Shown here one piece after another: positions 44,631 to 62,626 of a stretch of DNA of 64,000 nucleotides. Position 1 is the first letter of the stretch. Every line of letters starts with the position of its first letter. Both the position numbers and the translations under genes were made by a program. Under the pieces are notes generated by a model. The model was not told the DNA's origin. It was given only the letters and a program-made list of their open reading frames with translations, and ran no database searches. The stretch spans positions 17,623 to 81,622 of the forward strand of contig JBDRGF010000159.1 of assembly GCA_043818055.1 (NCBI GenBank), read 5' to 3'. Source of the DNA: Pseudomonadota bacterium (lineage in GTDB: Bacteria > UBA10199 > 2-02-FULL-44-16 > JBDRGF01).

Positions 44631-44667
44631 GATTTTCTCCCAATGGAAATTTATATTGCGATATACA

Positions 44668-44782
44668 AAAGCAAGAAGTCAGAGGCAAGAAGTCAGAAGT
44701 TAGAAGTTAGAGGTCAGAAACAAGAAGTCAGAAGTCAGAAGTCAGAAGCAAGAAGCTAGGAGTCAGGGGCCGGAAGTCAACC
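44668..44782. repeat. Heptanucleotide tandem array block C, about 16 units (AGYYAGA)
   Basis: agcaaga agtcaga ggcaaga agtcaga agttaga agttaga ggtcaga aacaaga agtcaga agtcaga agtcaga agcaaga agctagg agtcagg. Confidence 0.8.
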
Positions 44783-44833
44783 GTAGGTTTGCCAGTTGTT
44801 TAAGAGTCCCCATAACATTTTGCCGATTTCATC

Positions 44834-45151: not shown

Positions 45152-45200
45152 CTGGCTTCTTGCTTCTGACTTCTTGCTTCTTGCCTCTGGCTTCTGCGAC
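45152..45200. repeat. Heptanucleotide tandem array block D (inverted orientation) plus adjacent duplicated 5'-end fragment of the MNT-HEPN gene (to about 45250)
   Basis: gcttcttgcttctgacttcttgcttcttgcctctggcttctg is the reverse complement of AGAAGYY units. 45195-45250 is about 85% identical to 43390-43450. Confidence 0.7.
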
Positions 45201-45284: not shown

Positions 45285-46626
45285 TCAGTCCTTTTTTATC
45301 ACTTTCCAGTGACCACCCTTATCGGGGCCAACACGTTCTATAAATCCTTTTAATTTTAACTTCTTCAGGTTTTCCTCAATTTTCCTCTGTGAAATTCCAA
45401 CAAACGTTGCCAGTTCATTTGCAGAAACATGAGGTTTTTCCCTAATTGTTTTGAGAATTTTAGCCTGGTTTCCCGTTACCTTTTCTCCGACCTTTTCTCC
45501 GACCTTTTCTCCGACCTTTTTAGACCTATTATAAACAGTGACCAAAAACCCCCCACCCTGTACATCAAACTTTGGAGAAGGAAGTTTTCTATCGGCAAAT
45601 GAATCAAATACGCGTTTTATTCCGGAACCATATTTTTCCATTATCTTCAGCTCTTTAAACATTGTTGCAATCTGCTTGTTTCTTATCTCCGATTTATAAT
45701 TCCCTTTCACCAGCTGTTCAACAGTAAGCGGTCCCATCAATTTTCCTGGATTGTAAAATTCCATTCGATCACTAAGACGAACTTGAGTAGTCGCGATGAA
45801 CGACCATGTTTATTACCAGCTCTCTAAGTGCATCCAAAGGATAATCCCAAACCTCATCTCTTTGTGGCTTTCCAGTTATAACATATGCCTTATTGATGTG
45901 CTTGGTTATAAAATGCATCACTTCATCAACTTCTGAAAGCACATCCGTTCTAACCGTTGTACCATCTTTGATAAGTGTCTCCGTCTGAAATCTGCCCAGT
46001 TCAATCGTGCTTAATATCGACCACTCTTTCATAAAAAGTAGAAAACACGCCTTCGATATTTTTTTATCACGCAACAACTCATACTTTTTTAGAAACGTAA
46101 TAGGGTCATCCGTAATTGGATATTCTCTGTTTCTATTTGCTCTTTCAATGAACAGCACAACCTTATCCAGAGAAATATCATTTATTGTATGATTGCTGTC
46201 CTCATAATAATCCCAGCTAGAATTAAATGTTTTGAGATGCATATTGACGACTTCATTTATATTCAGAAGATGATTAGAATTTTTGACCCGTTTGTAATAT
46301 CTGCCTCTGAACGCCACCGGTTTTATCGGATATTCAATCGTATTTATAACAGCTATCAATTTTCCACCGCGTTTTTTAACATCGACGTCAGGAATGATTG
46401 ATGGGTTGGTTTTGTTCTTGATTTCATTTATCCAATTCTGAACAGTTTCTTTGCCTATTTTAACACCTTCCACTTTGCCTTTATCATTCACGCCGATAAC
46501 AACACTCCCGCCTTTCGCATTAGCAAAAGCCACAAGCGTCTCTATTACCTCATTTCCAAAATTGAGTTTAAATTCCTGTTTGTCTGATTCTTTGTATTTC
46601 ATTCTACACTGTCCACGGTAGCCCAA
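45285..46626 (-). pseudogene. AlbA_2 + HATPase_c_4-like + wHTH 'divergent AAA / Schlafen-like' regulator, split by a frameshift; contains (KVGE)n 12-nt coding repeat
   Basis: ORFs 45772..46626 (AlbA_2, FANAKGGSVVIGV) and 45285..45764 (wHTH C-terminus) lie in different frames. ccgaccttttct x3-4 at about 45480-45530. Confidence 0.55.
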
Positions 46627-47889: not shown

Positions 47890-47984
47890 GTGATGACGCG
47901 TTTCTGATGTTATTAACGCTGAAGAGTGATTAAGAGTTTGATTAATTCAGTCCTTCGACCCCCTCCACCTCCCCCTTATAAGAG

Positions 47985-48062
47985 GCTGTTGCTAAAATGT
48001 AGGGGCACCCCCCCCGTGGTTGCCCTCTTATAAGGGCAGGCACGGGGGCCTGCCCCTACAAA
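47985..48062. repeat. Inverted pair of REP-like GC-rich hairpins (...GCCCCTACA family)
   Basis: tgtaggggcaccccccccgtggttgccc ... gggcaggcacgggggcctgcccctacaaaaac. Confidence 0.7.
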
Positions 48063-48095
48063 AACATCAAAAAACAGACTTCGGCAATTGGCTAT

Positions 48096-48518
48096 TCATT
48101 TTTTATTTACCAGGCTGTTTAAAAGACTCTTAATTTGGCTTATCTGTTTTTTATATACCATTATAGTCTGCCATTTGAGATCGAGATAGCGATGTACGAG
48201 CCTGTTTCGATGAAAGGCAAGTTGCCCAAGTGCCTGGGCTTGTTTTGCGCTCAATCCCGCATTTTTGGCCGCGAGAGATAAAGTTTGCGCATAGCTATCG
48301 GCGGAAATTCCTTTTTCAGCTAAAACAGTCCCGCAAATTTCTATCAGGGCGTTCAATATATTTTCCACTGTTCTGTCGATCAGCTTTTGTTTTTTTGTAT
48401 CAGTCCGATATTCTTCCCACGTAATCCTGGAGTATTCTGCATCAAACTCGCACATCTCCTGCGATATAAACTGAATCGATTCTGCTATTCTCCCCTTTGC
48501 ATAAGTATATTCAGGCAT
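48096..48518 (-). CDS. HepT-like HEPN toxin (DUF86)
   Basis: AFHRNRLVHRYLDL contains the Rx4-6H HEPN motif. 140 aa. Confidence 0.7.
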   Translation of the reverse strand: MPEYTYAKGRIAESIQFISQEMCEFDAEYSRITWEEYRTDTKKQKLIDRTVENILNALIEICGTVLAEKGISADSYAQTLSLAAKNAGLSAKQAQALGQLAFHRNRLVHRYLDLKWQTIMVYKKQISQIKSLLNSLVNKK

Positions 48519-48954
48519 TTTTGATTCTCCTTAAGTTTACCTTAGAAGCAAGAATCTGCCAGGCAGTCCCAAAAAGGCAAAAATCTTCCATCTGAGCTAT
48601 TGATTCAAACAAATAGCGATCACACAGATCCTTATTTTTAACATATACTGGGATTCCTTTTACAGAGGCATTGTAATAAACCATTGGATGATCAAATTCC
48701 TTTTTTAATCTTAGAATGTTCACTTCCAATCCAAGCAATTCACTTAAATCGACACTGATCTTTCCAATAACATCGAGCATTTTCTCCTCATCAGTATGTT
48801 CATCGGAAAACAGAACAGCTATATCGACATCGGATATCCTTCTCTGCTTCCCATGCGCCCAGGAACCATACAAAAAGACCAAATCTAATTTGAGTTTTTT
48901 TGAAACTCTTTTAAAATATTTTTCTAAGATTTTTTTTAACTTTGAGGAGTCCAT
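48511..48954 (-). CDS. MntA-like minimal nucleotidyltransferase antitoxin (start set at the internal Met; the track ORF extends to 49083)
   Basis: LVFLYGSWAHGKQRRISDVDIAVLF NTase GS...D.D motif. Start at 48954 overlaps the epimerase stop (TAATG). Confidence 0.65.
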   Translation of the reverse strand: MDSSKLKKILEKYFKRVSKKLKLDLVFLYGSWAHGKQRRISDVDIAVLFSDEHTDEEKMLDVIGKISVDLSELLGLEVNILRLKKEFDHPMVYYNASVKGIPVYVKNKDLCDRYLFESIAQMEDFCLFGTAWQILASKVNLRRIKNA

Positions 48955-49961
48955 TATATGTTCAACTCCTTCACAAACTCCCAATTCTCTCTGGTCCAAT
49001 CGACTGTTTTTTTGAGGCCATCTATAAAGGAAACTTTTGGTGACCAGTCGAGCATCTTTTTCGATTTTTCTATTGATGCCCATGTCGCTTTCATATCCTC
49101 TTTCGGGAATGGTAGACGATCAATTTTGAGTTTCGCGCCGGTCGCTCCCTCAATAAATGATATCATTTCAACTAGTTCATGAGGAGCATCGCCTCCCAGA
49201 TTGAATATCTCATAGCCAACATTTTTAAGCGCCTTTATCGTGCCATCGGCTATATCATCCACATATGTGAAATCACGCTTCTGAGTTCCATCCCCCATCA
49301 GCTGGATATGATTTCCTTCAAAAGCCCACTTTATAAAACGAAATATACTCATATCGGGTCGCCCAGCAGGTCCATAGACTGTGAAGTACCTTAAAATTGA
49401 GACATCGATATCGTAAAGATAATGATAGCTGTATGCAATTCCCTCCGCTCCACCTTTTGACGCTGCGTATGGTGATATCGGCGTTGTCGTTGGTATCGAT
49501 TCATCGAAGGGCATCTCTTTTCCGGCATAAAGGCTCGATGTTGAGGCCAGGACGAATTTTTTAACATCGTGTTTTTTACAGAGTCCCAACAAATTAGCGG
49601 TGCCAAGCATGTTTGTAGTGATATAAACTTGAGGATTATCGAGGCTTGCCCTTACACCCGCTCTGGCCGCAAGATTTATCACCGCGTCAAATTTATGCTC
49701 CGAGAAAATTCTTTCCAAGGCATCTTTGTCTTCGATATCGAGCTTTATAAATTTAAAATTGTTAAACTTTGACAGGAAATTTTCAAGTCGCCACTCTTTC
49801 AACCGGACATCGTAGTAGTCATTGAGATTATCGATACCCACGACCTCCACACCCAACTCACACAATCTCTTAGCCACATGAGAACCGATAAACCCAGCAA
49901 CCCCTGTGACAAGAATTTTCTTAGTATTTTGAGTCAATTTTTTAATATCGTTTACCATCAT
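48954..49961 (-). CDS. NAD-dependent epimerase, UDP-glucuronate 4-epimerase-like
   Basis: KILVTGVAGFIGSHVAKRL...YAASKGGAEG. Paired with ugd in the locus. Confidence 0.7.
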   Translation of the reverse strand: MMVNDIKKLTQNTKKILVTGVAGFIGSHVAKRLCELGVEVVGIDNLNDYYDVRLKEWRLENFLSKFNNFKFIKLDIEDKDALERIFSEHKFDAVINLAARAGVRASLDNPQVYITTNMLGTANLLGLCKKHDVKKFVLASTSSLYAGKEMPFDESIPTTTPISPYAASKGGAEGIAYSYHYLYDIDVSILRYFTVYGPAGRPDMSIFRFIKWAFEGNHIQLMGDGTQKRDFTYVDDIADGTIKALKNVGYEIFNLGGDAPHELVEMISFIEGATGAKLKIDRLPFPKEDMKATWASIEKSKKMLDWSPKVSFIDGLKKTVDWTRENWEFVKELNI

Positions 49962-50094
49962 CGATTTTTACCACATGCCACATGCTCAAGCCTACATACT
50001 GCTCTTGACAGGCTACCGCCGTCCCCGTTCAAAATTCGAACCGGCAAAAAGGAAAATAGATTGTTTATACTGCTCATCAATTTTTTTTTGGGAA

Positions 50095-50150
50095 GGTTTG
50101 AAACCTTCCCCTACATTCACGGGCGACCACGGGGGGATCGCCCCTACAAT
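50095..50150. repeat. Two tandem REP-like hairpins (...CCCCTACA family)
   Basis: ggaaggtttgaaaccttcccctacattc and gggcgaccacggggggatcgcccctacaataaa. Confidence 0.7.
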
Positions 50151-50191
50151 AAAACATTTCGCCGTACGCTATACGCCGTACACCGTACGTC

Positions 50192-50704
50192 CTATGCTAC
50201 TTTTTCAACACGCACGCAGGGCAATTCAAGCCGAACTTTCTTCCCTACAAGATTCAACAGCACTTTAACCCTTCCATCCGCAGAGATCGGTTTTTCCAGC
50301 ACTCCGACGAGATCCGTAAGCGGGCCATAGCAGATCCGCACGCTATCCCCGGCTTTAAAAAGCAGCTGCTGCTGTATAATTCCTTTTTCATCCACCCTGC
50401 CCTTTATTACATCTATCACAACATCATCAAGTGAGAGGGGAATGTCTCCGGCGCTTACAAATTTCCTGACTCCACGCGTATATTTTATCATCCTGAACAG
50501 ATTGATCTCGTTTGGTGATATGCGAACGAAGAGATATGAGGGAAAAAGGGGCTTTAGCCTCTGCAGTTGTCTCGTCACTCCCCTCACTGCAACGCGAATT
50601 TGCGGCAAAAAGGCCTCGACATTCGCCCGCCTCATATGTTCGAGGACGATATGCTCAATGCATGGCTTTGTCTGTAAAACGTACCATTTCATATCATGCA
50701 CCAC
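50192..50704 (-). CDS. NusG-like transcription antiterminator paralog (RfaH/UpxY/LoaP-type, NGN + KOW)
   Basis: WYVLQTKPCIEHIVLEHMRRANVEAFLPQIRV NGN domain and a C-terminal KOW-like AGDSVRICYGPLTDLVGVL. Confidence 0.7.
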   Translation of the reverse strand: MVHDMKWYVLQTKPCIEHIVLEHMRRANVEAFLPQIRVAVRGVTRQLQRLKPLFPSYLFVRISPNEINLFRMIKYTRGVRKFVSAGDIPLSLDDVVIDVIKGRVDEKGIIQQQLLFKAGDSVRICYGPLTDLVGVLEKPISADGRVKVLLNLVGKKVRLELPCVRVEKVA

Positions 50705-51242
50705 CCATCGCCAAACCGTTATTCCAGATCAACAGCAACCCCTCTTCTTTCAACCAGTCGTCCATCTTAGAAAATTCAGAGCTCGACAACAAAAGGGTGC
50801 GTATCTTCTTTTTCACCATGCCCTCAACTTTTGTGATGATCCCCTCAAGCTTACCCTTATCGACATCGCCTACGAGCAAAAGATCTAGAACAGCTGTCTC
50901 AGAGCCCTTCGCCAACGCACCCATCAGATAAGCGCTTTCCACGTTTCCGATCTCACTGACAATTTCGTGAAGCTTATCGATGCCGACCACCTTCTTTGAC
51001 ATGCTGTTGATTTCTGGGAAGAGTGGGTGCTCAGTATTTGCACAATAGTAAACATTCCTTCCCCGTTTTTCGGAGACGAGGAGAGAGGCCTTTTCTAATC
51101 TATTGAGTTCGACGCGAATTGAATTTGAGGAGCAATGAAACTCATCGGAGAGTTCGCGCAAATATGCCTTGGTCTTTGGATTTACAAAAAAGCGAATTAA
51201 CAACTTGATTCGCGCTTCCGATGTGATAATAGAGTCCAACAT
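50694..51242 (-). CDS. Winged-helix transcriptional regulator with C-terminal domain
   Basis: KAYLRELSDEFHCSSNSIRVELNRLEKASLLVSEKRGRNVYY is a wHTH motif. 11-nt overlap with the NusG-like gene. Confidence 0.5.
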   Translation of the reverse strand: MLDSIITSEARIKLLIRFFVNPKTKAYLRELSDEFHCSSNSIRVELNRLEKASLLVSEKRGRNVYYCANTEHPLFPEINSMSKKVVGIDKLHEIVSEIGNVESAYLMGALAKGSETAVLDLLLVGDVDKGKLEGIITKVEGMVKKKIRTLLLSSSEFSKMDDWLKEEGLLLIWNNGLAMGGA

Positions 51243-51405
51243 CTTGTGATGATTTCTCCCCTACCTTTTTAGACGATCAATTTAATCAATCGAAGCCATT
51301 GCGTTGCAATATGAGTAAAAATGTTGCTCATAATTATCATCTCTCACATACTTGTCAACCCGCTAAAGAACGATAATTGTAACGATTTGTTTTTTAATGA
51401 TTAAA

Positions 51406-52737
51406 TCATCCCACAGAATGAACAATGAATCCATGTTCATATAAATGAGACTTTTCATAGAGGTTTCTGCCATCAAAGATGATAGGGTCCGTCTTCATCA
51501 GGGATTTGATTTTAGAAAAATCGGGACTCCTGAATTCACGCCACTCGGTACAAACTATCAATGCATCGGCATTTGTCAGACATGCATATGCATCATCATT
51601 CCACATCACACTGTTTGCAATCTGTCCAAGGGCTTCCTGGGAACTTGCAATAGCAACTGGATCAAACGCATTGACCAAAGCCCCATGTGCTACTAACTTT
51701 TCTATCAAATATAACGAAGGTGCAAACCTCACATCGTCAGTATTTGCCTTGAAGGCCAAACCCCAAACTCCGAAAGTCTTTCCCTCGAGACCTCCCCTGT
51801 CATTAAAATGCTTAACGATCTTATTCCAATACCATTCCCTGTGATAATCATTGGCACGGTCTGCAGCCTCGACGATTGTTATAGGATGATCGTGTTCCCT
51901 GCCAAGCTGGACGAGCGCTTTGGTATCCTTTGGAAAACATGAGCCTCCGTAGCCAAGCCCGGCGTACAGAAAATCAGGACCGACCCGGGGGTCGCTTCCC
52001 AGCCCGCGTCTCACATGATTGATATCGGCACCTATCTTCTCGCAAAGGCGCGCCATCTCGTTCATAAAGGAGATGCGAGTGGCGAGCATCGCGTTGGCGG
52101 CGTATTTGGAAAGCTCTGATGAAGGGATGTCCATCTTTAAGAAACGATCCGATCTGCGCATGAAAGGGGAATAGAGTTCGTGCAATATCTGGCCAACACT
52201 CTCCTTCTCCATACCGACTATCACGCGATGAGGCTTCATGAAATCGCTGACTGCGTCTCCCTCTTTGAGAAATTCAGGATTCGAAGCGACATCTACGAGA
52301 TGTGGATCGAAGCCCCTCCTTATCAGTTTTTCCTCGATGACCTTTTTTACACGATATGTTGTTCCTACGGGGACTGTGCTCTTTGTCACAACCACGATGG
52401 GAGATGTGATGATGCTTCCTATCTCATCGGCAACTGCCAGGACATTTGTAAGATCCGCCTTGCCATCCTCCATGGGAGGGGTATCCACTGTGATAAAGCA
52501 GATCGTTGCATCTTTCAATCCGTTGCTGAGTTTGTTGACAAAGAAGAGGCGATTTTCTTCGATATTTCTGCTGACCACCTCTTTTAGACCGGGCTCAAAG
52601 ATGGGAATTTCTGAGCGTTTGAGTTTTTCAATTTTATCCAGATTTTTATCTACGCATGTGACGACGTTTCCGGCATCGGCAAAGCATGCCCCGGTGACGA
52701 GCCCCACATAACCTGTTCCAACGACACAGAGTTTCAC
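51406..52737 (-). CDS. ugd: UDP-glucose 6-dehydrogenase
   Basis: MKLCVVGTGYVGLVTGACFA...GGSCFPKD catalytic Cys region. UDPGDH family. 443 aa. Confidence 0.85.
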   Translation of the reverse strand: MKLCVVGTGYVGLVTGACFADAGNVVTCVDKNLDKIEKLKRSEIPIFEPGLKEVVSRNIEENRLFFVNKLSNGLKDATICFITVDTPPMEDGKADLTNVLAVADEIGSIITSPIVVVTKSTVPVGTTYRVKKVIEEKLIRRGFDPHLVDVASNPEFLKEGDAVSDFMKPHRVIVGMEKESVGQILHELYSPFMRRSDRFLKMDIPSSELSKYAANAMLATRISFMNEMARLCEKIGADINHVRRGLGSDPRVGPDFLYAGLGYGGSCFPKDTKALVQLGREHDHPITIVEAADRANDYHREWYWNKIVKHFNDRGGLEGKTFGVWGLAFKANTDDVRFAPSLYLIEKLVAHGALVNAFDPVAIASSQEALGQIANSVMWNDDAYACLTNADALIVCTEWREFRSPDFSKIKSLMKTDPIIFDGRNLYEKSHLYEHGFIVHSVG

Positions 52738-52767
52738 TTTGCCTCCATATAAAAATACTGCCCTCAG

Positions 52768-52840
<73 letters not shown>

Positions 52841-53047
52841 ACTGAAAGCAGTTTTTAAAAACATCAAACTGAGTTCGCTTAGCTAGCTAATATGTGAAAA
52901 AAGATCAAGGGTTTAATCTCATGTTTGGGATATTTTAGCATCGGCATCACATAAACTGTTTATTTTTATTCCCACTTGATATCTGGCTGGAATTATGCTG
53001 AATTAAGCATCAGAAGCCCTTTTTAAGGGAACAAATTAGGAGGCAAC

Positions 53048-54796
53048 ATGAAGAAAAAATCCCTATCAAACCTTGTGACCTTTATCCTCATCATGTCATT
53101 TCTTATAAGTTGTTCAGGAGGAACGAGTTCACAGGGAGGAGTAGATAATTCGGCATCGGTTGCAGATGATAGCCTTGTTGGAGTTTGGACGCAAAACACG
53201 AGTGACGCAAACGCTCTAAAAACGATGACTCTTACAAAAACGAACGTCACCAACAGCCTTAGCATGGATGGGAATATGGGGAATAACACACAAGTGAAAG
53301 GGGTAATGGTTGTAATCCCATCCTCCACTGCAAAAGCTGCTGCCGACGCTGAAACTGCAACAGCAATCTTGAGTTTCTATGATACAGGAACAAACGGCGC
53401 TATCCTAGATGTTACCATCAAAGGCGCGATCTCCTTATCTGCCGACTGCAAAACACTTACGATAGATGACAGCCAGAACAACACTACAACTACATTCACC
53501 AGCACCAAGACATCCTGCTCGGACACCGGGACAGTAACACAGCCTACAACACCCGGCGCACAGCCCGCCAACTGCATCAATAGCGATATCCCAGCAAAGA
53601 TAAATTGGGCAAGACAGATAGGTTCAACAAATACCGATTTTGCCACTAGCATTTGTATGGATAAAACCGGAAATGTTTACATGGCCGGACATACCCTGGG
53701 CAGTTTGGACAACAACCAAAACGCGGGGGGGGCCGATATTTTTCTCGTAAAACACGACTCCTCGGGAAATAAAATATGGCTTCGGCAGATTGGAACAGCA
53801 TCAAAGGACCTTGCTGCTGGGGTTGCTGCCGACTTGAATGAGAATATCTATATGACGGGATATACCCAAGGGGGTTTGGATAATAATCAAAATGCCGGTG
53901 ATTATGACATCTTTGTCATGAAGTTCGATGCCTTGGGGAACAAGCTCTGGACGCGCCAGATGGGCACTAATGCGTATGATGCCTCATCCTCAATAGCGGT
54001 GGATAGCAGCGGAAATGTGTATATTGCCGGCAAAACGAATGGAGCTTTGGATGGACAGAAACATTCAGGGCTCAGGGATATCTTTCTTATCAAGCTGGAT
54101 TCGTCAGGCAACAAGCTCTGGACACGCCTGTCGGGAACCGCTGCAAACGATGAAGCCACCGGTGTCGCTGTGGATAGCACCGGGAATGCCTATGTCACCG
54201 GCATGACAGAGGGTGCATTGGATGGCAATCAGCATTCAGGGTTCTCTGATATATTTGTTATGGAGTTCGATCCGTCAGGCAATAAGCTCTGGACGGAACA
54301 GAGGGGAACAGCCCTTAACGATAATACATCGGCCATTGCAGTTGATAGTAGTGGAAACAGCTATGTATGTGGCAGGACGGAGGGTGGGCTGAGTGGCAAT
54401 CAAAATGCTGGATTGACGGATATCTTTCTCATTAAGCTCGATTCAGCGGGAAATGATATCTGGACGAAACAGTTCGGCACAACACAAAATGACAGCGCAT
54501 CAGGGATCGCAACAGATATGAGCAACAATATTTATGTCACAGGCAATACCGATGGAGGTGTGGATAACTATAACAATATGGGATTTTCAGATATTTTTAC
54601 CGCAAAAATAGACCCATCATCTGGAAATCCAGTCTGGATATTTCAAACGGGTTCTCCCGGCGGCGACGAGGCAACTGGAATTACGATTGATTCAGGCGGA
54701 AGTATCTACGTGGCAGGACATACCGACGACGATTTGTATGGTAATAAGAATGCGGGCATAAGAGATGCCTTTGCGATCGCGCTGATTTGCAATTAA
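53048..54796 (+). CDS. Lipoprotein with multiple SBBP beta-propeller repeats
   Basis: Signal peptide plus lipobox (LISC). At least 7 repeats of the ...GNVYxxGxTxGxLDGNQNAGxxDIFLxKxDSSGNKLWTRQxGT type. Confidence 0.7.
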   Translation: MKKKSLSNLVTFILIMSFLISCSGGTSSQGGVDNSASVADDSLVGVWTQNTSDANALKTMTLTKTNVTNSLSMDGNMGNNTQVKGVMVVIPSSTAKAAADAETATAILSFYDTGTNGAILDVTIKGAISLSADCKTLTIDDSQNNTTTTFTSTKTSCSDTGTVTQPTTPGAQPANCINSDIPAKINWARQIGSTNTDFATSICMDKTGNVYMAGHTLGSLDNNQNAGGADIFLVKHDSSGNKIWLRQIGTASKDLAAGVAADLNENIYMTGYTQGGLDNNQNAGDYDIFVMKFDALGNKLWTRQMGTNAYDASSSIAVDSSGNVYIAGKTNGALDGQKHSGLRDIFLIKLDSSGNKLWTRLSGTAANDEATGVAVDSTGNAYVTGMTEGALDGNQHSGFSDIFVMEFDPSGNKLWTEQRGTALNDNTSAIAVDSSGNSYVCGRTEGGLSGNQNAGLTDIFLIKLDSAGNDIWTKQFGTTQNDSASGIATDMSNNIYVTGNTDGGVDNYNNMGFSDIFTAKIDPSSGNPVWIFQTGSPGGDEATGITIDSGGSIYVAGHTDDDLYGNKNAGIRDAFAIALICN

Positions 54797-54813
54797 AAAG
54801 TTTGTGTAAAAAA

Positions 54814-55572
54814 TTATTTTGTAAAATCAACTGTAAATGTGCTGCCGTTACAATTGCCGCAGTTTGCTATCTCAAGTGTAAATTTTGCCTTATCAGAACA
54901 TCCAACGCTACCCTGTGAGTTTTTAGCTAATACCAAATTGCAATTCCGCGTGTTATTCGTCCATGTACCTCCTGTTGTAGCGTTATCGTTCATCGTAAAT
55001 ATAACCCCACCTGCTATGTAGCGGTTTTGCTCACACTTTCCATCTTGATATTGACCGGCTGTATCTGCAGGCAGGTTGTAGCCCGAACAATCCAGAAGTT
55101 CAGTGAACATCCACCTTATTTTTGCAGAGTTTGGAGTCGTCTCGGCCGGAGGAGGCTCAGTAGAGGTTTCAGGCGACGTCTCTTTGTTGGATTCTTCCGG
55201 AGCAGTTTCATTCGCGGGTTCGGTTTCTCTTGCGGGTTCGTCTGGGCCGCCGTCGCGGGGGGCTCTTTCCTCCGCAACTATCTCAGGTGATTTCTCCTGT
55301 GGTTTCTCAGATGTCTTATCAACGGGCTTTTCAGCAGGTGGTGTGTCGGGCATCTTCTCTGTGCCGCCATCTTTTGGAGTCTCCTCGTATGGTTTCCCCT
55401 CTTTGATTTTTTCCAGCTGTTTGGCGCTTTTGCAATAATCCTCTAACTTCTTGCTACTATCCTTATCGACTTTGACCTTTTCCCCTTTGCACTCCACGTA
55501 GGTGTCTTTTCCCGCACAGCCTTTGAGCAACAGGGCCAGAGTCCCTAATCCCAATACAATCAACGGAACCAT
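54814..55572 (-). CDS. Putative lipoprotein with Pro/Glu-rich linker and Cys-rich C-terminal domain
   Basis: MVPLIVLGLGTLALLLKGC lipobox. Low-complexity PE-rich middle region. Confidence 0.45.
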   Translation of the reverse strand: MVPLIVLGLGTLALLLKGCAGKDTYVECKGEKVKVDKDSSKKLEDYCKSAKQLEKIKEGKPYEETPKDGGTEKMPDTPPAEKPVDKTSEKPQEKSPEIVAEERAPRDGGPDEPARETEPANETAPEESNKETSPETSTEPPPAETTPNSAKIRWMFTELLDCSGYNLPADTAGQYQDGKCEQNRYIAGGVIFTMNDNATTGGTWTNNTRNCNLVLAKNSQGSVGCSDKAKFTLEIANCGNCNGSTFTVDFTK

Positions 55573-55695
55573 AATTTCCTCCTTGCCGCATTGAAGTGCT
55601 ATCTGCAGAGAAAGTCAAGAGAATATATCGCCAAAAGCTCTATTTTCAACGTTTTGCGAGCAATAAAAAAATGCCCAATTAACAATACCAAAATT

Positions 55696-55828
55696 CAATA
55701 TCCAATATCCAATATCCAATATCCAATATCCAATATCCAATATCCAATATCCAATATCCAATATCCAATATCCAATATTCAGTTAACAATATCCAATATC
55801 CAATATTCAATACACAATACTCAATTAA
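55696..55828. repeat. (CAATATC)n heptanucleotide microsatellite, about 12 near-perfect plus about 7 degenerate units, in a divergent promoter region
   Basis: caatatccaatatccaatatcc... seen directly in the sequence. Between the minus gene start at 55572 and the plus gene start at 55866. Confidence 0.9.
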
Positions 55829-55865
55829 TGTTGAATAATTATCGACAAGAATATAGATTGTAGCG

Positions 55866-56378
55866 ATGTTATCGAAAACTATCATTCTATTCTTAATCAC
55901 GCTCCTGCCCTTTTTGGAGCTGAGAGCTTCGATACCATTTGGAATCTTATCCGGCACCGTTGCTATGCCTTTGGGGTTTCACGCTACAGGGCTTGATCTC
56001 AGCTGGCCGATCGTCTTTGCCATCTGTGTGGTTTCCAATATGGTGCTTGGTATTATACTGTATCCGGTCATCCATCATCTTATTCTTCTTTTGGAGAAGA
56101 TTCCTTTATTCGGGAAATTTTGGAAACGCCGCGTTGAAAAGACTCAAAGAAAAATCCACCAATATGTCGAGAGATGGGGGATGATCGGGGTTGCCCTGTT
56201 CATCGCCGTGCCGCTCCCCGGCAGTGGGTCATATAGCGGTGCAATCGGTGCTTATCTGATAGGCATGAGCTACAGGCGATTTATACTCGCCAATTGCATC
56301 GGCGTTACGATCGCGGGGATACTGGTGACGCTCGCAACGATGACTGGCAAAGGAATTTGGGCATTTTTCTCTAGCTGA
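55866..56378 (+). CDS. Small multidrug-export-like (COG2426/Sm_multidrug_ex) membrane protein
   Basis: LELRASIPFGI motif and 4 TM segments. 170 aa. Confidence 0.45.
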   Translation: MLSKTIILFLITLLPFLELRASIPFGILSGTVAMPLGFHATGLDLSWPIVFAICVVSNMVLGIILYPVIHHLILLLEKIPLFGKFWKRRVEKTQRKIHQYVERWGMIGVALFIAVPLPGSGSYSGAIGAYLIGMSYRRFILANCIGVTIAGILVTLATMTGKGIWAFFSS

Positions 56379-56404
56379 GAGCTAAAAACCTGCCCGAAAG
56401 TAGT

Positions 56405-56437
56405 AACGCGGGCGGGTTTAAAACCCGCCCCTACAAA
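56405..56437. terminator. REP-like hairpin, probable bidirectional terminator between convergent genes
   Basis: gcgggcgggtttaaaacccgcccctacaaaaag. Confidence 0.55.
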
Positions 56438-56442
56438 AAGAG

Positions 56443-57006
56443 TTAATCTTTGAGCGATGGGCATTTGCAACCCTGTTTACCCACTGACTTGACCTTTTTT
56501 TCGATGATGTTCATCTCGTCGGAGCCGCTTAAAATTAGAGGGAAAAATTCGGCTTTATCATCCTGTGCCCACTTTAGATTTTCATTCTCCCACCGGGCTA
56601 CCATCTGCCGCGATTCACCCTCATCGATCACAAATACAAGGTCTCTCTTATAATCGAAGTCCTTTGAGATAAGGGGCGCGTAGGTTTTGAGCCTCTTTGC
56701 CAGAAAGTTCACATAGACAGAAAAATAGCGCTTCAGGAAGCGATTCAGACGCGCCCTCTCCTGGGGCAGATATTTATCCAGCAACGTCACTTCAACCTCT
56801 ATCATGTTCTTATCCGTTACCCTCGGGGCAAAGGCCAGCAGGCATGAAGTGAGGTAGAGGCTGGTGATATCAAGTTGCAATTGCAACGCCTGTTTTTGAG
56901 TGAACGGCGCCGACTTGTTCAAATCGCCGCTTTTTAAACTGGCAAAGGCCTGTGATGTCGAAAACAAGAGAACTACGACGATCAAGCATGCGGAAAACCT
57001 TTTCAT
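56443..57006 (-). CDS. Secreted hypothetical protein
   Basis: N-terminal signal peptide MKRFSACLIVVVLLFSTSQAFA. No recognised domain. Confidence 0.45.
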   Translation of the reverse strand: MKRFSACLIVVVLLFSTSQAFASLKSGDLNKSAPFTQKQALQLQLDITSLYLTSCLLAFAPRVTDKNMIEVEVTLLDKYLPQERARLNRFLKRYFSVYVNFLAKRLKTYAPLISKDFDYKRDLVFVIDEGESRQMVARWENENLKWAQDDKAEFFPLILSGSDEMNIIEKKVKSVGKQGCKCPSLKD

Positions 57007-57103
57007 ATAACACCTCCAAGTAAGCTTGATGAACCAGTTTTATGCGATTGTCAACTCTCTAGGAAAAAGTGTAGGAGTGTAGAAGTGTAGGAGTGTTTAA
57101 GTT

Positions 57104-57760
57104 ATGATGATATGTGGATTGATATTGGCTGCGGGGGTGTCATCTAGGATGGGGGCTTGCAAGGCGCTGCTCTCACTTCGTGATGGAAGCACGCTTTTGT
57201 CTGCGCAATATAACCTGCTCAAAAATGCAGGGTGCGAGAGTATAGCGGTCGTAGTAGGAGCAAATAATAAAGATATCGTAAAGGCGCATGAGGATCTGGA
57301 TGTCATCTGGGTTGAAAATGAGCAATGGGAGTTGGGGCAGTTTTCATCTTTGCAATGTGGTTTGGATAAATTGCTAAAACTATCACCCCCTCCCCATCCC
57401 TCCCCCCTCAAGGGGGAGGGGCTAAATGTGGTGATCCTCCCCATCGATACTGTCGGGGTGGAGGGTAAAACGGTTGAAATTCTCATAAGCGAAGCTCAAC
57501 AGGATGAAAACTATGATGCTTATGTGCCAGAATATGCTGGTAGAGGTGGACATCCCATACTCATCACAAAAAAAATTATAACCCGCAGTCTTGATTTAGA
57601 CCCTAAAAATGAGAGGGCCAGACTCGATTTCATCATCTCTGAGGCTCACCATAGGATGGTCCCTGTCGATGACAAAGGTATAAGAAATAACATCAACACG
57701 AGAAGCCAATGGAGAAATTATATTTCCCAATCACAAGAGATCTTTCAGATAATCAGATAG
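57104..57760 (+). CDS. mocA: MobA-like NTP transferase, probable molybdenum cofactor cytidylyltransferase
   Basis: GLILAAGVSSRMGACKALL matches the MobA/MocA family. Adjacent to an XDH-family operon. Contains an unusual GC-rich palindromic in-frame insert. Confidence 0.65.
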   Translation: MMICGLILAAGVSSRMGACKALLSLRDGSTLLSAQYNLLKNAGCESIAVVVGANNKDIVKAHEDLDVIWVENEQWELGQFSSLQCGLDKLLKLSPPPHPSPLKGEGLNVVILPIDTVGVEGKTVEILISEAQQDENYDAYVPEYAGRGGHPILITKKIITRSLDLDPKNERARLDFIISEAHHRMVPVDDKGIRNNINTRSQWRNYISQSQEIFQIIR

Positions 57761-58570
57761 TATGTTAGCAGAGACAAAGCTCCTGTAGGCGGCGGTCGAT
57801 CTGATATCATCGATCGATTTCCATTCATTCTTCAGTGACTCTTTAGCTTGATCAATCAAATCTTCACTTAGCAACTCTCCTTCAAGAAGCTTCACTGTTT
57901 TAGGCGCCGTCACAACAGTCGGCCCCATGCTTGCGGCTGCTATCGAGATCGATTCGATAACGCCTTTTTTTACAATCGACCCAACGCAGAGAGCAGCCTT
58001 TGATATCGTCTGCGCCTTTCGTGTTCCTATCTTATAGAACTTCGCATTCATTCCATTTTGAGGAGTGGGAAGTTTTAATCTTGTGATGATCTCGTCCGGT
58101 TTTAGATTCAATTTTTTATACCCTTCAAAAAGATCGACGAGTTTGATAAGGCGAGAGCCTCTAAGACTTTTAAGTTCTAATTCACAATTGTAAACTACAA
58201 GGACAGGAGGGGTATCCCCCGCAGGACTTGCGTTTGCGACGTTTCCACCGATCGTTCCGCGACTTTGTATCTGCTTGGCGCCGATGGTCGAACATGCGTG
58301 CGATAGAGTAGAAAAATGTTTTTTGATCAAAGCATCCTCTTTGATCATCGCATGGGTAACGAGCGCCCCTATATAAACATCTTCCCCCTCTTCAGATATG
58401 CCGCTCAATTCAGAGAGGGCTGATATATCTATGACGCCCTTCAAATCGATGGCGCCGCTTTTCCATTGGACGATGAGATCCGTCCCTCCGGCGAGGAGTG
58501 GAAAGCGGGTCGATTCGTCGAATAGATATCGAAGCGCTTCGTCCAATGTTGTTGGTTTGAGATATTTCAA
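57731..58570 (-). CDS. Xanthine dehydrogenase family FAD-binding (medium) subunit; proposed TTG start
   Basis: FAD_binding_5-like LLAGGTDLIVQWK...GTIGGNVANASPAGD. Track ORF 57731..58906 has a spurious N-terminal 112 aa overlapping the 2Fe-2S gene. TTG at 58570 forms TTGA with the upstream stop. Confidence 0.7.
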   Translation of the reverse strand: MKYLKPTTLDEALRYLFDESTRFPLLAGGTDLIVQWKSGAIDLKGVIDISALSELSGISEEGEDVYIGALVTHAMIKEDALIKKHFSTLSHACSTIGAKQIQSRGTIGGNVANASPAGDTPPVLVVYNCELELKSLRGSRLIKLVDLFEGYKKLNLKPDEIITRLKLPTPQNGMNAKFYKIGTRKAQTISKAALCVGSIVKKGVIESISIAAASMGPTVVTAPKTVKLLEGELLSEDLIDQAKESLKNEWKSIDDIRSTAAYRSFVSANILSDYLKDLL

Positions 58571-59040
58571 CTTTTCATTTCCCTTGCGGCGTTTTCTATT
58601 GCGTCTATTATTTTCACATATCCGGTGCAGCGGCAGAGATTGCCTGAGATCGCTTCTGTGATCTCCTCGCGCGTCGGTCTTTTGTTCTTTCTCAAAAGGG
58701 ATTCGGCCGCCATCATCATGCCGGGCGAGCAGATCCCGCACTGCATAGCGCCACCTGAGACGAAGTGTTTTTGTAGCACTGAAAACTTTTTTCCTTGTGA
58801 TAAACCCTCTATCGTCTCCACATGATCGCCATCCTTCAGCTGGCCTAAAAGTATCAGGCATGAATTCACAACTTCGCCATTTAGCAGGACTGAGCAGGCG
58901 CCACACTCACCCTCTCCGCACCCCTCCTTCGTCCCAGTTAAATGAAGTTTTTCACGCAACAGATCGAGTACTCGGGAGTGAGGTTCGGCTTGAATCATCG
59001 TGTCTTTTCCGTTTAATTTTATTTTTATTTCTATCATCAT
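58567..59040 (-). CDS. [2Fe-2S]-binding small subunit of the XDH/aldehyde oxidoreductase family
   Basis: GCGEGECGACSV and CGICSPG...CRCTGY two-cluster motifs. Start taken at MMIEIK so that the REP hairpin is intergenic. Confidence 0.8.
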   Translation of the reverse strand: MMIEIKIKLNGKDTMIQAEPHSRVLDLLREKLHLTGTKEGCGEGECGACSVLLNGEVVNSCLILLGQLKDGDHVETIEGLSQGKKFSVLQKHFVSGGAMQCGICSPGMMMAAESLLRKNKRPTREEITEAISGNLCRCTGYVKIIDAIENAAREMKS

Positions 59041-59048
59041 ACGCCCTC

Positions 59049-59076
59049 GGGCAGACACAGGGGTCTGCCCCTACAT
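59049..59076. repeat. REP-like hairpin between Mo-enzyme subunit genes
   Basis: gggcagacacaggggtctgcccctacatc. Confidence 0.6.
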
Positions 59077-61311
59077 CTATTTTATACAAGCCGCTAATAA
59101 TTTCTCCGGTGTTATCGGCAGGTCGCGGATACGCACACCGATTGCATCATAAACCGCATTTGCGATCGCCGGAGCGGGGCCGTCCATCGGCAACTCCCCC
59201 AATCCCTTGCAGCCGCCGGCGCTGTATGAATATAAATTCTCTATAAAATGGACGTGCATCTTCGGGGCATCTAGCGCTGTCGGTATGAGATATGTCTGCA
59301 TGCGATCCGTTTTCACGTGCCCTTTATCCATGACAAAATTTTCGAGCAGCGCGTATCCGACGGCCTGAAGAGCGCCGCCCTCCACCTGTCCGGAAGCCAG
59401 CATCGGATTGACCACCTTTCCCACATCCTGGACGAGATGGAGATTGGTGAGTTTCACTTCAAATGTATTCATGTCGACTTCAACCTCTGCTATATTGGCT
59501 CCCCACGCAAATACGGGATAGGCATCCCCTTTGTAATTATGTTCATCCCATACGATACCGGGTGGAACCTGATACTGACGAATGACCTCGGTGGGACCGT
59601 TACTATCATAAAATTCCCGCGCGATTTCGATAAATCCTTTTTTAACTGGTGCAAAGCTCTCAATTCTATTCCTCAACTCCAATGCCGCATCGTACAACAC
59701 CTTTCCTATGACCATCGTCGTCCGCGATGCAACAGTCGGACCGCTATTTGGAACGACAGATGTATCCGGGGTTGCGACCTTAATATTTTCGATTGAGATA
59801 GCAAGTGCATCGGCGACTATCTGGGTCAAAACAGTATGAGAGCCCTGTCCCATCTCGGTCGATGCTGTTAGAATTGTAACTGAGCCATCCTTTTCCAAAC
59901 GTACACCGGCCTTCGATTTCAGACGATCCTCGCCGCTGCCTGTAAATCCGGCGCCGTGCAGAAACAACGAAATTCCGATGCCGCGCCTTTTCGAAGAATT
60001 CCTTTTCCATTTTGAATCGGGTTTGGACTTCTTTTCAAATTCGCTCATCGACGACGCCTTCTCCAGGACTTCCGATGCTGACACGCTCTCCTTGAGCCTT
60101 TGCCCCGTGGTGGTCTCGTCGTTTAACTTGAGGAGGTTTTTCCTGCGAAATTCCAGAGGTGACATTTTAAGCTCATTTGCTATCTCATCGATGTGCGACT
60201 CCAGCGCGAAGATCGACTGCGGCGCGCCAAAGCCTCTGAATGCGCCGTTTGGTGATGTGTTGGTGGCAAATGTTAAAGCATGTGCACTGAAATTTTCGAT
60301 CTTATAGGCGCCCCCCGAATGCAACACGCCCCTGGACAACACAACCGGGGAGAGAGACATATACGCGCCACCATCCAGAAAGAATCTTATCTCCATCGCC
60401 TTGATCGTTCCGTCGCTTAAAACGCCGGTCTTGTAATGCGCCTTTGCCGGATGGCGCTTCGTCGAGACGATTATATCCTCATTGCGATCGTAGATAATCT
60501 TGATGGGACGGCGTGCCTTGTATGAAAGGATGGCTGCATAACCTGCGATGACAGATGGATAATCCTCCTTGCCGCCAAACGCCCCACCGACAACGGCCTG
60601 ACGAACGGCGATGCGCGCATCGTCCCAGCCAAAAAGATATTTCATGGCATCGTGAACGTAATACGGACACTGAAGCGAACCGATTATCTCCATCACGCCA
60701 TCTTTACGAAAATCGGCGATCACGCTCTGAGGTTCGATATATAAGTGTTCTTGGTGACCGACGCTGTAATCACCCTCGATGATCAGATCGGAATTTTTGA
60801 ATCCTGCGTCAACATCACCCTTTACGATATCATAGGAGGCAAAGAGATTATCGTCGCCATATAAAACCCTCTTTTTCGAAAGCGACTCCTCCATCGTGAG
60901 GACTGGATCGATTGCCTCAAATTTGACTTCGACCCTCTTTCTCGCCTCGAGCGCCATCTCCCTTGTGGGTGCGGCAATCAGACATATCCCCTCACCGACA
61001 TAACGAAACTCAGCCGTAGCAAGCAGCGGCATATCTTTTTCTATCATCGCCACACAGTTTTTTCCGGGAATATCATCGGCAGTTGCCACAACGACCTTAG
61101 ACCAATCAAAGGAGGGATCGAAATCTACAGATGTGATGCGCCCAGCTGGGGCCTTCGCCCTCACAACAGCGCCATGCCACATGCCGGGAAGCACGATATC
61201 GTCGACATATTTTGCTATTCCAAGCGCTTTATCATGAGCATCAACACGAGGTGTATTTTGTCCTATAAAATTCATCACGTTATTTTTGCTGGAAGCACTG
61301 TAAAAAGACAA
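59077..61311 (-). CDS. Molybdopterin-binding large subunit of the XDH/aldehyde oxidoreductase family
   Basis: 744 aa. Ald_Xan_dh N-terminal a/b hammerhead region and MoCo-binding domain patterns (GGAFGGK, GQG...E). Confidence 0.85.
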   Translation of the reverse strand: MSFYSASSKNNVMNFIGQNTPRVDAHDKALGIAKYVDDIVLPGMWHGAVVRAKAPAGRITSVDFDPSFDWSKVVVATADDIPGKNCVAMIEKDMPLLATAEFRYVGEGICLIAAPTREMALEARKRVEVKFEAIDPVLTMEESLSKKRVLYGDDNLFASYDIVKGDVDAGFKNSDLIIEGDYSVGHQEHLYIEPQSVIADFRKDGVMEIIGSLQCPYYVHDAMKYLFGWDDARIAVRQAVVGGAFGGKEDYPSVIAGYAAILSYKARRPIKIIYDRNEDIIVSTKRHPAKAHYKTGVLSDGTIKAMEIRFFLDGGAYMSLSPVVLSRGVLHSGGAYKIENFSAHALTFATNTSPNGAFRGFGAPQSIFALESHIDEIANELKMSPLEFRRKNLLKLNDETTTGQRLKESVSASEVLEKASSMSEFEKKSKPDSKWKRNSSKRRGIGISLFLHGAGFTGSGEDRLKSKAGVRLEKDGSVTILTASTEMGQGSHTVLTQIVADALAISIENIKVATPDTSVVPNSGPTVASRTTMVIGKVLYDAALELRNRIESFAPVKKGFIEIAREFYDSNGPTEVIRQYQVPPGIVWDEHNYKGDAYPVFAWGANIAEVEVDMNTFEVKLTNLHLVQDVGKVVNPMLASGQVEGGALQAVGYALLENFVMDKGHVKTDRMQTYLIPTALDAPKMHVHFIENLYSYSAGGCKGLGELPMDGPAPAIANAVYDAIGVRIRDLPITPEKLLAACIK

Positions 61312-61408
61312 GACAAAAAACGTGAAGCCTAAAAACGTGAAGCGTCCACGCGTGACGCGTGAAGCGAAAAAAAAGGAGCAGCATTACTGCGCCACCTTAT
61401 ATTCTCAA

Positions 61409-62533
61409 TCAGTACTCCTGAGATAAATAGTATGCAAAGAACGGATCGGCGATGCGCACACCATTTTCGTCCTTTTCGACATATCCTTTATCCATGAGCA
61501 GGTTACACATCTGAGACATCCCTCTCGCTGAAATTCCACTTTCAGAAACCGTCGCTTGCGATGTGACCTCCTTAATGTATCCGTTTTTTGCAATCACAGA
61601 AAGAAACTTGACCTGTTTTATACTCAAAAATGCAACCTTTTCAGCATATCGGCTCTGTGCATCGAGGTATCCATGATGGATGATGTTTTTAATCTCCGAA
61701 ATTTCGACAGCCTCATGTTCATGAGAGTTGTAAATATCAGAACAGAGCTTACATATATAGTTAGGGATATGATATCCGCTTTGAATGATGAATCTCAACG
61801 CATCATCATCCAATCGAATTTTTTTGTTTTTCATTCTCTCCAGTATATACGGCTTCCAATTTTCAAAGCTTATCTCTTTCAACTCCAGGCTTTTTCCCCA
61901 GTTATAAAATGGCCTTCGCTCGTCAAGAAAGATATCCTTGAGAAGATGTTTCTTAGACCCTGAGATGATGATGGAGCCCTTATTCAATTTCTGGGTCAAA
62001 TCTCTTAACAGTGCTTCTGCCTCTGGCACGAAAACCACATCCTGAAACTCATCCATGACAAGAAGAAGGGGATATTCGCTGCCTAATCCTAATAAAGAGT
62101 TAAAAATATCATGAAGGCTTCTTTTATCTGTTGTTTCTGTCGATATGGTGAGCTTTGTCTCACCAGATAATGAATCGACCTTGATCTCCGGACGCAAAGA
62201 TTTCAGAAGCTTTAATATATTGGAGGCTATCACTTTTATTGAAAAAACTTTATTGATCACATCTGTCAGCGCATGTGAGAAACGAATTGCTATCGAATCA
62301 AGATCCTTCACCTCCTGCAAGTTCACGTAACAAAAGATTGCGCTTTTTTTCCTCGCAAGAAAATGTTTACCTGTCACATTGACCAGCACAGAGGTCTTTC
62401 CAAATCGACGGGGGGCGAAGAGAAGAATTTTTTCACCACCGTTGACATATCTATCAAGCCTTTTTATCTCCTCCTCGTAGTTACAGATATCCTCTTCGTC
62501 TATCAACACGTCATATTTAAACATGGCTTCCAA
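61409..62533 (-). CDS. AAA ATPase (archaeal-type ATPase_2 + DUF234)
   Basis: LLFAPRRFGKTSVL Walker A, LLVMDEFQ Walker B, and a C-terminal DUF234-like region. Confidence 0.65.
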   Translation of the reverse strand: MEAMFKYDVLIDEEDICNYEEEIKRLDRYVNGGEKILLFAPRRFGKTSVLVNVTGKHFLARKKSAIFCYVNLQEVKDLDSIAIRFSHALTDVINKVFSIKVIASNILKLLKSLRPEIKVDSLSGETKLTISTETTDKRSLHDIFNSLLGLGSEYPLLLVMDEFQDVVFVPEAEALLRDLTQKLNKGSIIISGSKKHLLKDIFLDERRPFYNWGKSLELKEISFENWKPYILERMKNKKIRLDDDALRFIIQSGYHIPNYICKLCSDIYNSHEHEAVEISEIKNIIHHGYLDAQSRYAEKVAFLSIKQVKFLSVIAKNGYIKEVTSQATVSESGISARGMSQMCNLLMDKGYVEKDENGVRIADPFFAYYLSQEY

Positions 62534-62545
62534 CCCTCCTAAAAT

Positions 62546-62609: not shown

Positions 62610-62626
62610 AATAAAATTTACACATT

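Follow-up and report, generated by a model that had tools for sequence, protein, structure and literature searches.

Probable subclass 2.4/group 4 REP hairpins with a GTAG foot in an uncultured Pseudomonadota genome

Hairpins of the window and the described REP systems

Repetitive extragenic palindromes (REPs) tagged by a terminal GTAG were brought together as a superfamily by Di Nocera 2013 (BMC Genomics 14:522, PMC3733652), who described 24 families of stem-loops, 20-40 bp long and with GC-rich stems of 6-13 bp, in more than 80 species and 8 phyla, among them Cyanobacteria, Chloroflexi, the PVC group and every class of proteobacteria. In that survey head-to-head (HH) dimers are preferred, the elements lie near the 3' ends of open reading frames (ORFs) and they are linked in "REPtrons" to genes for REP-associated tyrosine transposases (RAYTs), and the authors argue that many REPs are transcribed and functional as RNA. 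Here we describe six GC-rich hairpins in a 64,000-nt stretch of contig JBDRGF010000159.1 (positions 17,623 to 81,622 of the forward strand) from an uncultured Pseudomonadota metagenome-assembled genome (MAG; GCA_043818055.1). This whole stretch is called the window below, and coordinates given with no locus name refer to it. In our reading, which we consider very probable, the six hairpins are GTAG-tagged REPs of the "canonical long" type of subclass 2.4/group 4, together with a palindromic relative of that type. As such they add a further example to an established kind of element, with no new element class or mechanism implied.

The closest described relatives are the REPs of TnpA_REP subclass 2.4 in the classification of Quentin 2018 (BMC Genomics 19:475, PMC6006769), which is distributed over Cyanobacteria and various phyla and whose proteins carry the motifs NH[IFV]H, WQ and YIxNNP. 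These REPs include a "canonical long REP" with three G-C pairs at the base of the stem as well as "double-foot" REPs, and the subclass has the "unique feature" that REPs occur in frame within the tnpA_REP gene. The same proteins make up RAYT group 4 of Bertels 2017 (GBE 9:2110), with 61 species in 17 classes. More distant are the REPs and bacterial interspersed mosaic elements (BIMEs) of E. coli with their single-copy HUH-Tyr enzyme RayT (YafM; subclass 2.2/group 2; Messing 2012; Ton-Hoang 2012; Corneloup 2021), which resemble the present elements in the GTAG foot, the GC-rich hairpin and the inverted pairs with short linkers but differ from them in a mandatory bulge and a longer stem. For groups 2 and 3, Corneloup 2021 summarises a mechanism in which the REP is bound by the enzyme as folded single-stranded DNA, its complement is not bound, GTAG is required for the reaction, and cleavage and rejoining adjoin the hairpin.

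All six copies in the window can be read on one strand as 5'-(T)GTAG followed by an abutting GC-rich hairpin whose first letters are GGG and whose last are CCC, over a length of 26-28 nt (Table 1). The foot is unpaired and sits directly at the stem end in every copy (CTAC on the opposite strand), the stems comprise 6-9 bp and are interrupted in two cases by a mismatch or bulge, and the free energies of the copies folded as DNA range from about -6.8 to -11.5 kcal/mol. Two hairpin types are present: four copies share a CACRGGGG loop region (type 1) and carry four different stems, and two, both single-footed, are near-perfect palindromes of the form GGG..GGTTTNAAACC..CCC (type 2) with a stem variant each. 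They are arranged as one HH dimer, one head-to-tail (HT) pair and two single copies, and the dimer can also be folded into a single long hairpin (-28.4 kcal/mol over a 101-nt stretch, z -5.2). The exact string CCCCTACA occurs six times in the window, always between 47998 and 59075, against an expectation of 1.01, and 0 of 100 shuffles reached six. CCTAC occurs 49 times in the window; folding of the 30 nt that precede each occurrence gave a foot-adjacent hairpin at these six (-6.8 to -11.1 kcal/mol as DNA) and at none of the other 43. An Rfam scan of the window returned tRNA-Lys only, with no Rfam family covering the hairpins.

Table 1. Coordinates of the hairpin copies and of the four sites that they occupy in the window (REPIN, REP doublet forming a hairpin)
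Feature	Coordinates	Strand of GTAG foot	Reading from the GTAG foot	Reading of the CTACA strand	DNA fold (kcal/mol)	Arrangement and context
Site 1	47998-48060					Feet-outside inverted dimer; 35 nt past the stop of a HepT toxin gene (48096)
REP copy 1, CACGGGG-loop	47998..48025	+	TGTAG-GGGCACCCCCCCCGTGGTTGCCC	GGGCAACCACGGGGGGGGTGCCC-CTACA (CTACA on -)	-7.4	Left half of inverted dimer; one stem mismatch
REP copy 2	48034..48060	-	TGTAG-GGGCAGGC-CCCCGT-GCCTGCCC	GGGCAGGC-ACGGGG-GCCTGCCC-CTACA (CTACA on +)	-10.0 (z -3.9)	Right half of inverted dimer
Head-to-head (feet outside) dimer, copies 1+2	47998..48060					8-nt linker TCTTATAA; BIME/REPIN-like
Site 2	50090-50148					Head-to-tail pair of both hairpin types; 43 nt past the stop of a NusG-like gene (50192)
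REP copy 3, palindrome type	50090..50115	-	TGTAG-GGGAAGGTTTCAAACCTTCCC	GGGAAGGTTTGAAACCTTCCC-CTACA (CTACA on +)	-8.9 (z -4.3)	
REP copy 4, CACGGGG-loop, bulged 28-nt form	50121..50148	-	TGTAG-GGGCGATCCCCCCGTGGTCGCCC	GGGCGACCACGGGGGGATCGCCC-CTACA (CTACA on +)	-7.0	Head-to-tail with copy 3
Site 3	56410-56435					Single copy flanked by convergent genes; distance to their stops 31 nt (55866-56378, +) and 7 nt (56443-57006, -)
REP copy 5, palindrome type	56410..56435	-	TGTAG-GGGCGGGTTTTAAACCCGCCC	GGGCGGGTTTAAAACCCGCCC-CTACA (CTACA on +)	-11.5 (z -3.6)	Sequence common among metagenome contigs
Site 4	59049-59075					Single copy inside the Mo-hydroxylase operon; takes up most of a 36-nt intercistronic gap
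REP copy 6	59049..59075	-	TGTAG-GGGCAGAC-CCCTGT-GTCTGCCC	GGGCAGAC-ACAGGG-GTCTGCCC-CTACA (CTACA on +)	-8.7 (z -3.5)	

All six copies are extragenic, and each of the four sites lies 1-43 nt 3' of the stop codon of a minus-strand gene, a placement that agrees, as does the HH dimer, with the preferences reported by Di Nocera 2013. Site 2 is upstream of an epimerase gene (start ~49961), and the NusG-like gene on its other side heads a ~45-kb polysaccharide locus. At site 4 the gap runs from the stop of a large subunit of the xanthine-dehydrogenase family (59077-59079) to the ATG (59040) of a 2Fe-2S subunit identified at 58567-59040 (Fer2_2, 1.3e-29). Copy 6 begins 1 nt past that stop and ends 8 nt ahead of that ATG, and a GAGGG Shine-Dalgarno-like motif abuts its 3' arm. 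In five of the six copies the GTAG strand is the G-rich minus strand, which also codes nearly all genes here.

The initial annotation of this DNA had described a family of REP-like hairpins at gene ends, once between convergent genes and once inside the molybdenum (Mo)-enzyme operon. Each of its hairpins is present where it had been placed, the gene map bears out these positions, and the REP-like character is upheld by the foot abutting a GC-rich palindrome, by the inverted dimer at one site and by the match to a published REP/RAYT class. Its count of five sites has to be corrected to four sites with six copies, and its stems of 8-10 bp to those given above. The tail that it gave as CTACAWWWA is conserved as (Y)GTAG/CTAC(R), whereas the WWWA portion is not, since six differing sequences follow CTACA (AAAAA, TTCAC, ATAAA, AAAAG, TCTAT and TTTTA).

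These properties are shared with the GTAG superfamily as a whole, to which the REPs known as SMAG in S. maltophilia also belong. In both cases the elements are stem-loops of 20-40 bp with an unpaired terminal GTAG and stems of 6-9 bp that show compensatory variants, they occur as singletons and as HH, tail-to-tail (TT) or HT dimers, they lie mostly downstream of ORFs between unidirectional or convergent gene pairs, and several sub-families coexist in one genome. Strings with the CACRGGGG loop are absent from the text and supplements of Di Nocera 2013, so that the loop is not assigned here to any one of the 24 families. In a text search of the literature, short strings from the elements matched only unrelated primers, and 16-17-mers matched nothing.

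Two side observations touch on sites 1 and 2. The linker of the dimer, TCTTATAA (48024-48036), recurs inverted as CCCTTATAAGAGG (47975-47987), 11 nt left of the dimer, where it adjoins a C-rich tract (47957-47977); this may represent what is left of a third REP that has decayed, or of a linker motif like those of BIMEs. In addition, GC content steps up near 50 kb, from ~0.33-0.41 (one bin 0.43) in 1-50700 to 0.45-0.49 in 50700-64000. In the low-GC part, sugar-nucleotide genes on the minus strand extend over ~45 kb together with other closely packed ORFs, and the NusG-like (UpxY/RfaH-type) gene at 50192-50704 heads this run. The REP pair of site 2 stands between this regulator gene and the first biosynthetic gene, and there is no REP within the low-GC locus.

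The hairpin family and its RAYT-like genes in other genomes

The same hairpins recur far outside this organism. We searched a collection of species-representative genomes with the pattern GGGCNNNCACNGGGGN{3,4}GCCCCTACA, which covers the four copies of CACGGGG type and leaves their three inner stem pairs free, and at least 120 stretches matched, from about 18 phylum-level groups as assigned by record title. Among the matches listed, Cyanobacteria are the most numerous, and Chloroflexota, Desulfobacterota/"Deltaproteobacteria", Myxococcota, Bdellovibrionota, Latescibacterota, Planctomycetota, Acidobacteriota, Omnitrophota, Nitrospirota, Campylobacterota, Gammaproteobacteria, Binatia, Hydrogenedentota, Armatimonadota, Deinococcota, Bipolaricaulota, Chlorobiota, WOR-3 and Bacillota are also represented. 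Because the flanks of these loci are unrelated to each other, the conserved unit is the 27-28 nt element alone. Copy 2 is matched exactly over 28-31 nt at three loci from other phyla (L042, L045 and L054) and at 31 of 32 nt at a fourth (L108), and the 27-mer of copy 6 is identical in two more (L034 and L114).

The three stem positions left free by the pattern are fully Watson-Crick in 88 of 96 27-mers, with 12 different complementary triplets, where chance would give 1 in 64, and it is therefore the hairpin rather than its sequence that is maintained. Among 1155 GC-rich perfect hairpins in the type-1 loci, the 3' pentamer is CTACA in 103 and CTACG in 35, followed at a distance by TTTTT in 10. 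Dimers in these genomes comprise 35 HH (feet-outside), 12 TT (feet-inside) and 7 HT (tandem) pairs, and the commonest feet-outside pairing joins a copy with an AACC stem to one with an AGGC stem, the combination found at site 1. Long open frames are avoided: those of 250 aa or more cover 74% of all positions in the 120 loci and hold 29% of the REP midpoints. Type-2 hairpins (GGGNNGGTTTNAAACCNNCCCCTAC) matched at least 120 metagenome contigs, and among the contigs listed 90 of 177 copies are double-footed (GTAG...CTAC); an initial regular expression for this type had found no match in the genome loci.

A denser arrangement was seen in MAGs of Myxococcota (L061:1423-4276), Hydrogenedentota (L111:1450-6300) and Campylobacterota (L091:5917-7580), each of which holds 4 or 5 REPs within a few kb with conserved flanks of at least 20 nt. 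In these three loci the REP is embedded in a longer repeated unit, as clustered REPs or a composite repeat.

Several of the matching loci also encode a candidate enzyme. All six-frame ORFs of the loci were compared with E. coli RayT, and a hidden Markov model (HMM) was then built from three hits; phmmer with E. coli RayT alone was barely sensitive (best E-value 1e-4), and the HMM added a fourth RAYT. Genes with a Y1_Tnp domain stand beside the same REPs in Anabaena (L048), a Latescibacterota genome (L063), two deltaproteobacterial MAGs (L082 and L052) and a further Deltaproteobacteria MAG (L124). In L048, L063, L082 and L124 the REPs lie on both sides of the RAYT-like gene, and the gene of L052 extends past the end of its locus. 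The arrangement in L124, where a feet-outside AGGC/AACC dimer precedes the gene and an AACC copy follows it, is that of a textbook REPtron.

The REPs also lie within these genes. In L063 (4251-4841) and L082 (6357-7058) they are in frame between the HUH and Tyr motifs of the RAYT-like gene, being translated as a GPCAVPK repeat in the former and as ...GAPPCGCP...GHPQGGAPT... in the latter, and in L125 a REP dimer at 10269/10355 is in frame inside a RAYT gene at 10001-10666. RAYT genes with insertions of their own REP between the HUH and Tyr motifs are found in three different phyla. At least 7994 relatives of the Anabaena protein were found, under the JGI name "REP element-mobilizing transposase RayT"; the genes of L124 and L125 are two of these relatives, examined with their flanking DNA, and the length range of the homologues listed, 122-277 aa, is in line with in-frame REP insertions.

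The proteins of L048, L063 and L082 score 51-71 bits with the NCBIfam model REP_Tyr_transpos, above their scores with the IS200 model, and the RAYT-like proteins carry the motifs NHxH, WQ and YIxxNP. Identity with E. coli RayT is 22% (BLASTP 1e-07), and the HUH motif differs (EHMH in E. coli, NHxH here). The alignment conserves the HUH positions (NHIH vs EHMH), W94, Q95, E100, H101, R104 and the tyrosine motif YIxxNP, residues that Quentin 2018 (PMC6006769) lists as GTAG contacts in E. coli RayT and that are shared between the two systems. A sequence search of solved structures at E-values up to 0.01 found no match to the Anabaena protein.

Taken together, these observations fit the published description of subclass 2.4/group 4 point by point. 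The 5' GT[AG]G foot, the long and (near-)perfect stem and the GGG...CCC base (in 6/6 copies) are those of the window itself; the double-foot palindromic form, the in-frame REPs in the RAYT gene and the NH[IFV]H, WQ and YIxxNP motifs are those of the related loci; and the scatter over Cyanobacteria and many other phyla is that of the family. The likeness is one of described anatomy. The present case differs from the published ones in its host, an uncultured Pseudomonadota MAG of about 37-46% GC, and in having no RAYT gene within 64 kb.

Alternative explanations and proposed mechanism

The most serious alternative holds that the hairpins are RNA elements first, either Rho-independent terminators or barriers to 3' exonucleases that stabilise the upstream mRNA, and that their repetition was selected for this role, for instance to allow differential expression within operons such as that of the Mo-enzyme large subunit and its 2Fe-2S and FAD subunits. 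We regard this as rather unlikely, although several observations speak for it: all four sites follow a minus-strand stop codon at short distance, five of the six copies point the same way with respect to minus-strand transcription, the hairpins are stable, and Di Nocera 2013 argue for transcribed, RNA-acting REPs, so that such a role would even be compatible with a REP origin if the elements had been exapted. The orientation is confounded, however, by the fact that nearly all genes here are on the minus strand, and termination at site 4 would be harmful, splitting three subunits of one enzyme. Neither a terminator nor a stabiliser has any need of an invariant GTAG foot or of a CACRGGGG loop conserved across phyla. 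An intrinsic terminator, which the initial annotation had offered as one of three functions, was rejected: whichever strand is read, the stem is not followed by a T/U run, for on one strand the tail consists of CTACA with a varying sequence after it and on the other of a non-T sequence that also varies (TTATAAGA, GTGAATGT, AAAAAAAA, GCGTTACT, GAGGGCGT and TCTTATAA). A terminator scan called none of the REPs as a hairpin, its one overlapping match being an off-register 5-bp alternative on the plus strand, yet the same scan did call a genuine terminator after the sigma-70 gene (62634-62656). The best supported of the three offered functions is the mobile miniature repeat, and that of an mRNA-stability element is possible. 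Identical elements flank RAYT-like genes in other genomes.

A second alternative takes the elements to be the subterminal hairpins of an autonomous element, that is, ends or remnants of an IS200/IS605-type insertion sequence or of a miniature inverted-repeat transposable element, and not RAYT-dependent REPs. IS200/IS605 ends are likewise hairpins read by a Y1 HUH transposase, the REP-linked proteins do match Pfam Y1_Tnp, and type-1 copies occur on 29 predicted viral contigs, in which an HMM search found no RAYT genes. We nonetheless give this explanation very little credence: conservation is confined to a unit of ~27 nt whose flanks are unrelated, the window has neither terminal inverted repeats nor a tnpA or tnpB gene, the linked proteins score higher with the RayT model than with the IS200 model and carry the RAYT-type motifs WQ...EH..R and YIxxNP, and the genes for them have REP arrays around them as in a REPtron and not a left-end/right-end pair. 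That the hairpins arose by chance, as GC-rich palindromes that cluster here but share no origin, would be favoured by their small number and by their confinement to 11 kb of the window's GC-richer part. This we consider close to negligible and refuted by the six occurrences where 1.0 was expected, a number reached in none of the shuffles, the sharp split between the six foot-adjacent hairpins and the 43 CCTAC sites that have none, and the 27-mers identical to copies 2 and 6 in other phyla.

Some observations weigh against the assignment to subclass 2.4/group 4 REPs that we prefer. No RAYT gene was found in the 64-kb window, either by phmmer with E. coli RayT or with the HMM built from the hits, and the gene whose presence the initial annotation had suggested looking for is found beside the same REPs in other genomes but not here. 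The RAYT-like proteins of those genomes, at 51-71 bits, fall under the curated 80-bit NCBIfam cutoff for the RayT equivalog, and biochemistry exists for E. coli and two group-3 systems only, with none for subclass 2.4 (Corneloup 2021). All six copies lie within the last 16 kb, with none in the first 47 kb of the window, where a densely packed polysaccharide locus of lower GC leaves little space between genes. An empty site or a presence/absence polymorphism was not found either: the two short metagenome contigs from the same organism, ENA ERZ27247128 (L001) and JGI 3300014656 (L123), both carry the REPs. For the Mo-enzyme large subunit the next homologue shares just 59% identity, too distant for a comparison of empty sites.

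If the hairpins are REPs of this type, their spread would follow the scheme known from the related systems. In single-stranded DNA, for example at a replication fork, the strand that reads 5'-GTAG-hairpin would fold, and a single-copy HUH/Tyr RAYT encoded elsewhere in the genome would bind the hairpin and read the GTAG foot. The enzyme would then cleave and rejoin the DNA beside the foot, and over evolutionary time copies would be seeded, singly or as inverted dimers, into intergenic DNA just 3' of ORFs. We infer that the source organism encodes, or once encoded, a cognate RAYT, and that this enzyme probably mobilised the copies of the window by cleavage and rejoining of single-stranded DNA. 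The bias of the GTAG foot towards the minus strand would fit an enzyme that acts on the lagging-strand template, but the number of copies, six, is too small for a judgement, and the reading is confounded because the minus strand is also the direction in which nearly all genes are transcribed.

A REP origin leaves room for effects on RNA, and transcribed copies may affect the mRNA that contains them. An effect of copy 6 on mRNA stability or on translational coupling is a plausible prediction, because this copy lies 1 nt past a stop codon and beside the ribosome-binding site of the next cistron.

Neighbouring features and implications

The window contains other repeats, which we report as separate observations. 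A tandem array of the heptamer CCAATAT (~14 units, 55688-55783) stands upstream of the Sm_multidrug_ex gene. In the ENA metagenome contig from the same organism (L001:241-332) this array is four units (28 nt) shorter within 2.7 kb of otherwise identical sequence, and its length therefore varies within the population. Arrays of AGAAGTC-like heptamers (44128-44791 and 45143-45196) flank small ORFs, with an inverted partner ~400-950 nt away, and arrays of GTGTAGGA / AGTGTAG-like units (57068-57123 and 62644-62692) form an inverted pair 5.5 kb apart that brackets the Mo-hydroxylase operon. The AGAAGTC-like and AGTGTAG-like arrays resemble the heptanucleotide short tandemly repeated repetitive (STRR) sequences of cyanobacteria. 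A perfect 23-nt inverted repeat, TTGATTATACTAAAAGTATAATA, with a 16-nt spacer (62547-62608) lies between the sigma-70 gene and an AAA_14 ATPase gene, where it adjoins the intrinsic terminator of the sigma gene (62634-62656); an operator, or an element of the promoter region, is a possible reading of this repeat.

Genes resembling toxin-antitoxin or defence functions are interspersed in the locus (48096-49083, 42748-43479, 41939-42427 and 45285-46626), among them an MNT/HepT pair and an ORF that fuses a nucleotidyltransferase to HEPN. Two sets of Schlafen AlbA_2 / HATPase_c_4-wHTH ORFs resemble split or duplicated fragments of one type of gene, and the ORF at 45285-45764 contains a 12-nt triplicate, ACCTTTTCTCCG.

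For the REPs themselves, the practical value of these findings is in annotation. A great many uncultured genomes contain these 27-nt hairpins together with the small spurious ORFs to which they give rise, and the proper label for them is REP, in place of terminator or hypothetical gene. The covariation counts show the subclass-2.4/group-4 type to reach well beyond the genomes surveyed in 2013-2018, and one defined sequence, 5'-TGTAGGGGCAGGCCCCCGTGCCTGCCC-3', is a possible substrate for a first biochemical test of a group-4 RAYT.

One point is mildly notable, namely the rigidity of the 27-nt architecture and of the doublet composition across many phyla. The fixed GTAG foot, the GGGC/GCCC clamp and the CACRGGGG loop region, with only three covarying stem pairs, are retained nearly letter for letter in about 18 phylum-level groups, while the associated RAYT has diverged to about 50% identity. 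It is conceivable, if rather doubtful, that the subclass-2.4 REP doublet and its RAYT form a horizontally travelling unit with unusually rigid substrate recognition, and that copy 6 controls the Mo-hydroxylase operon at the level of translation or of mRNA stability. If such a travelling unit does exist, it would offer a compact, sequence-defined model for the dissemination of REPs outside the Proteobacteria.

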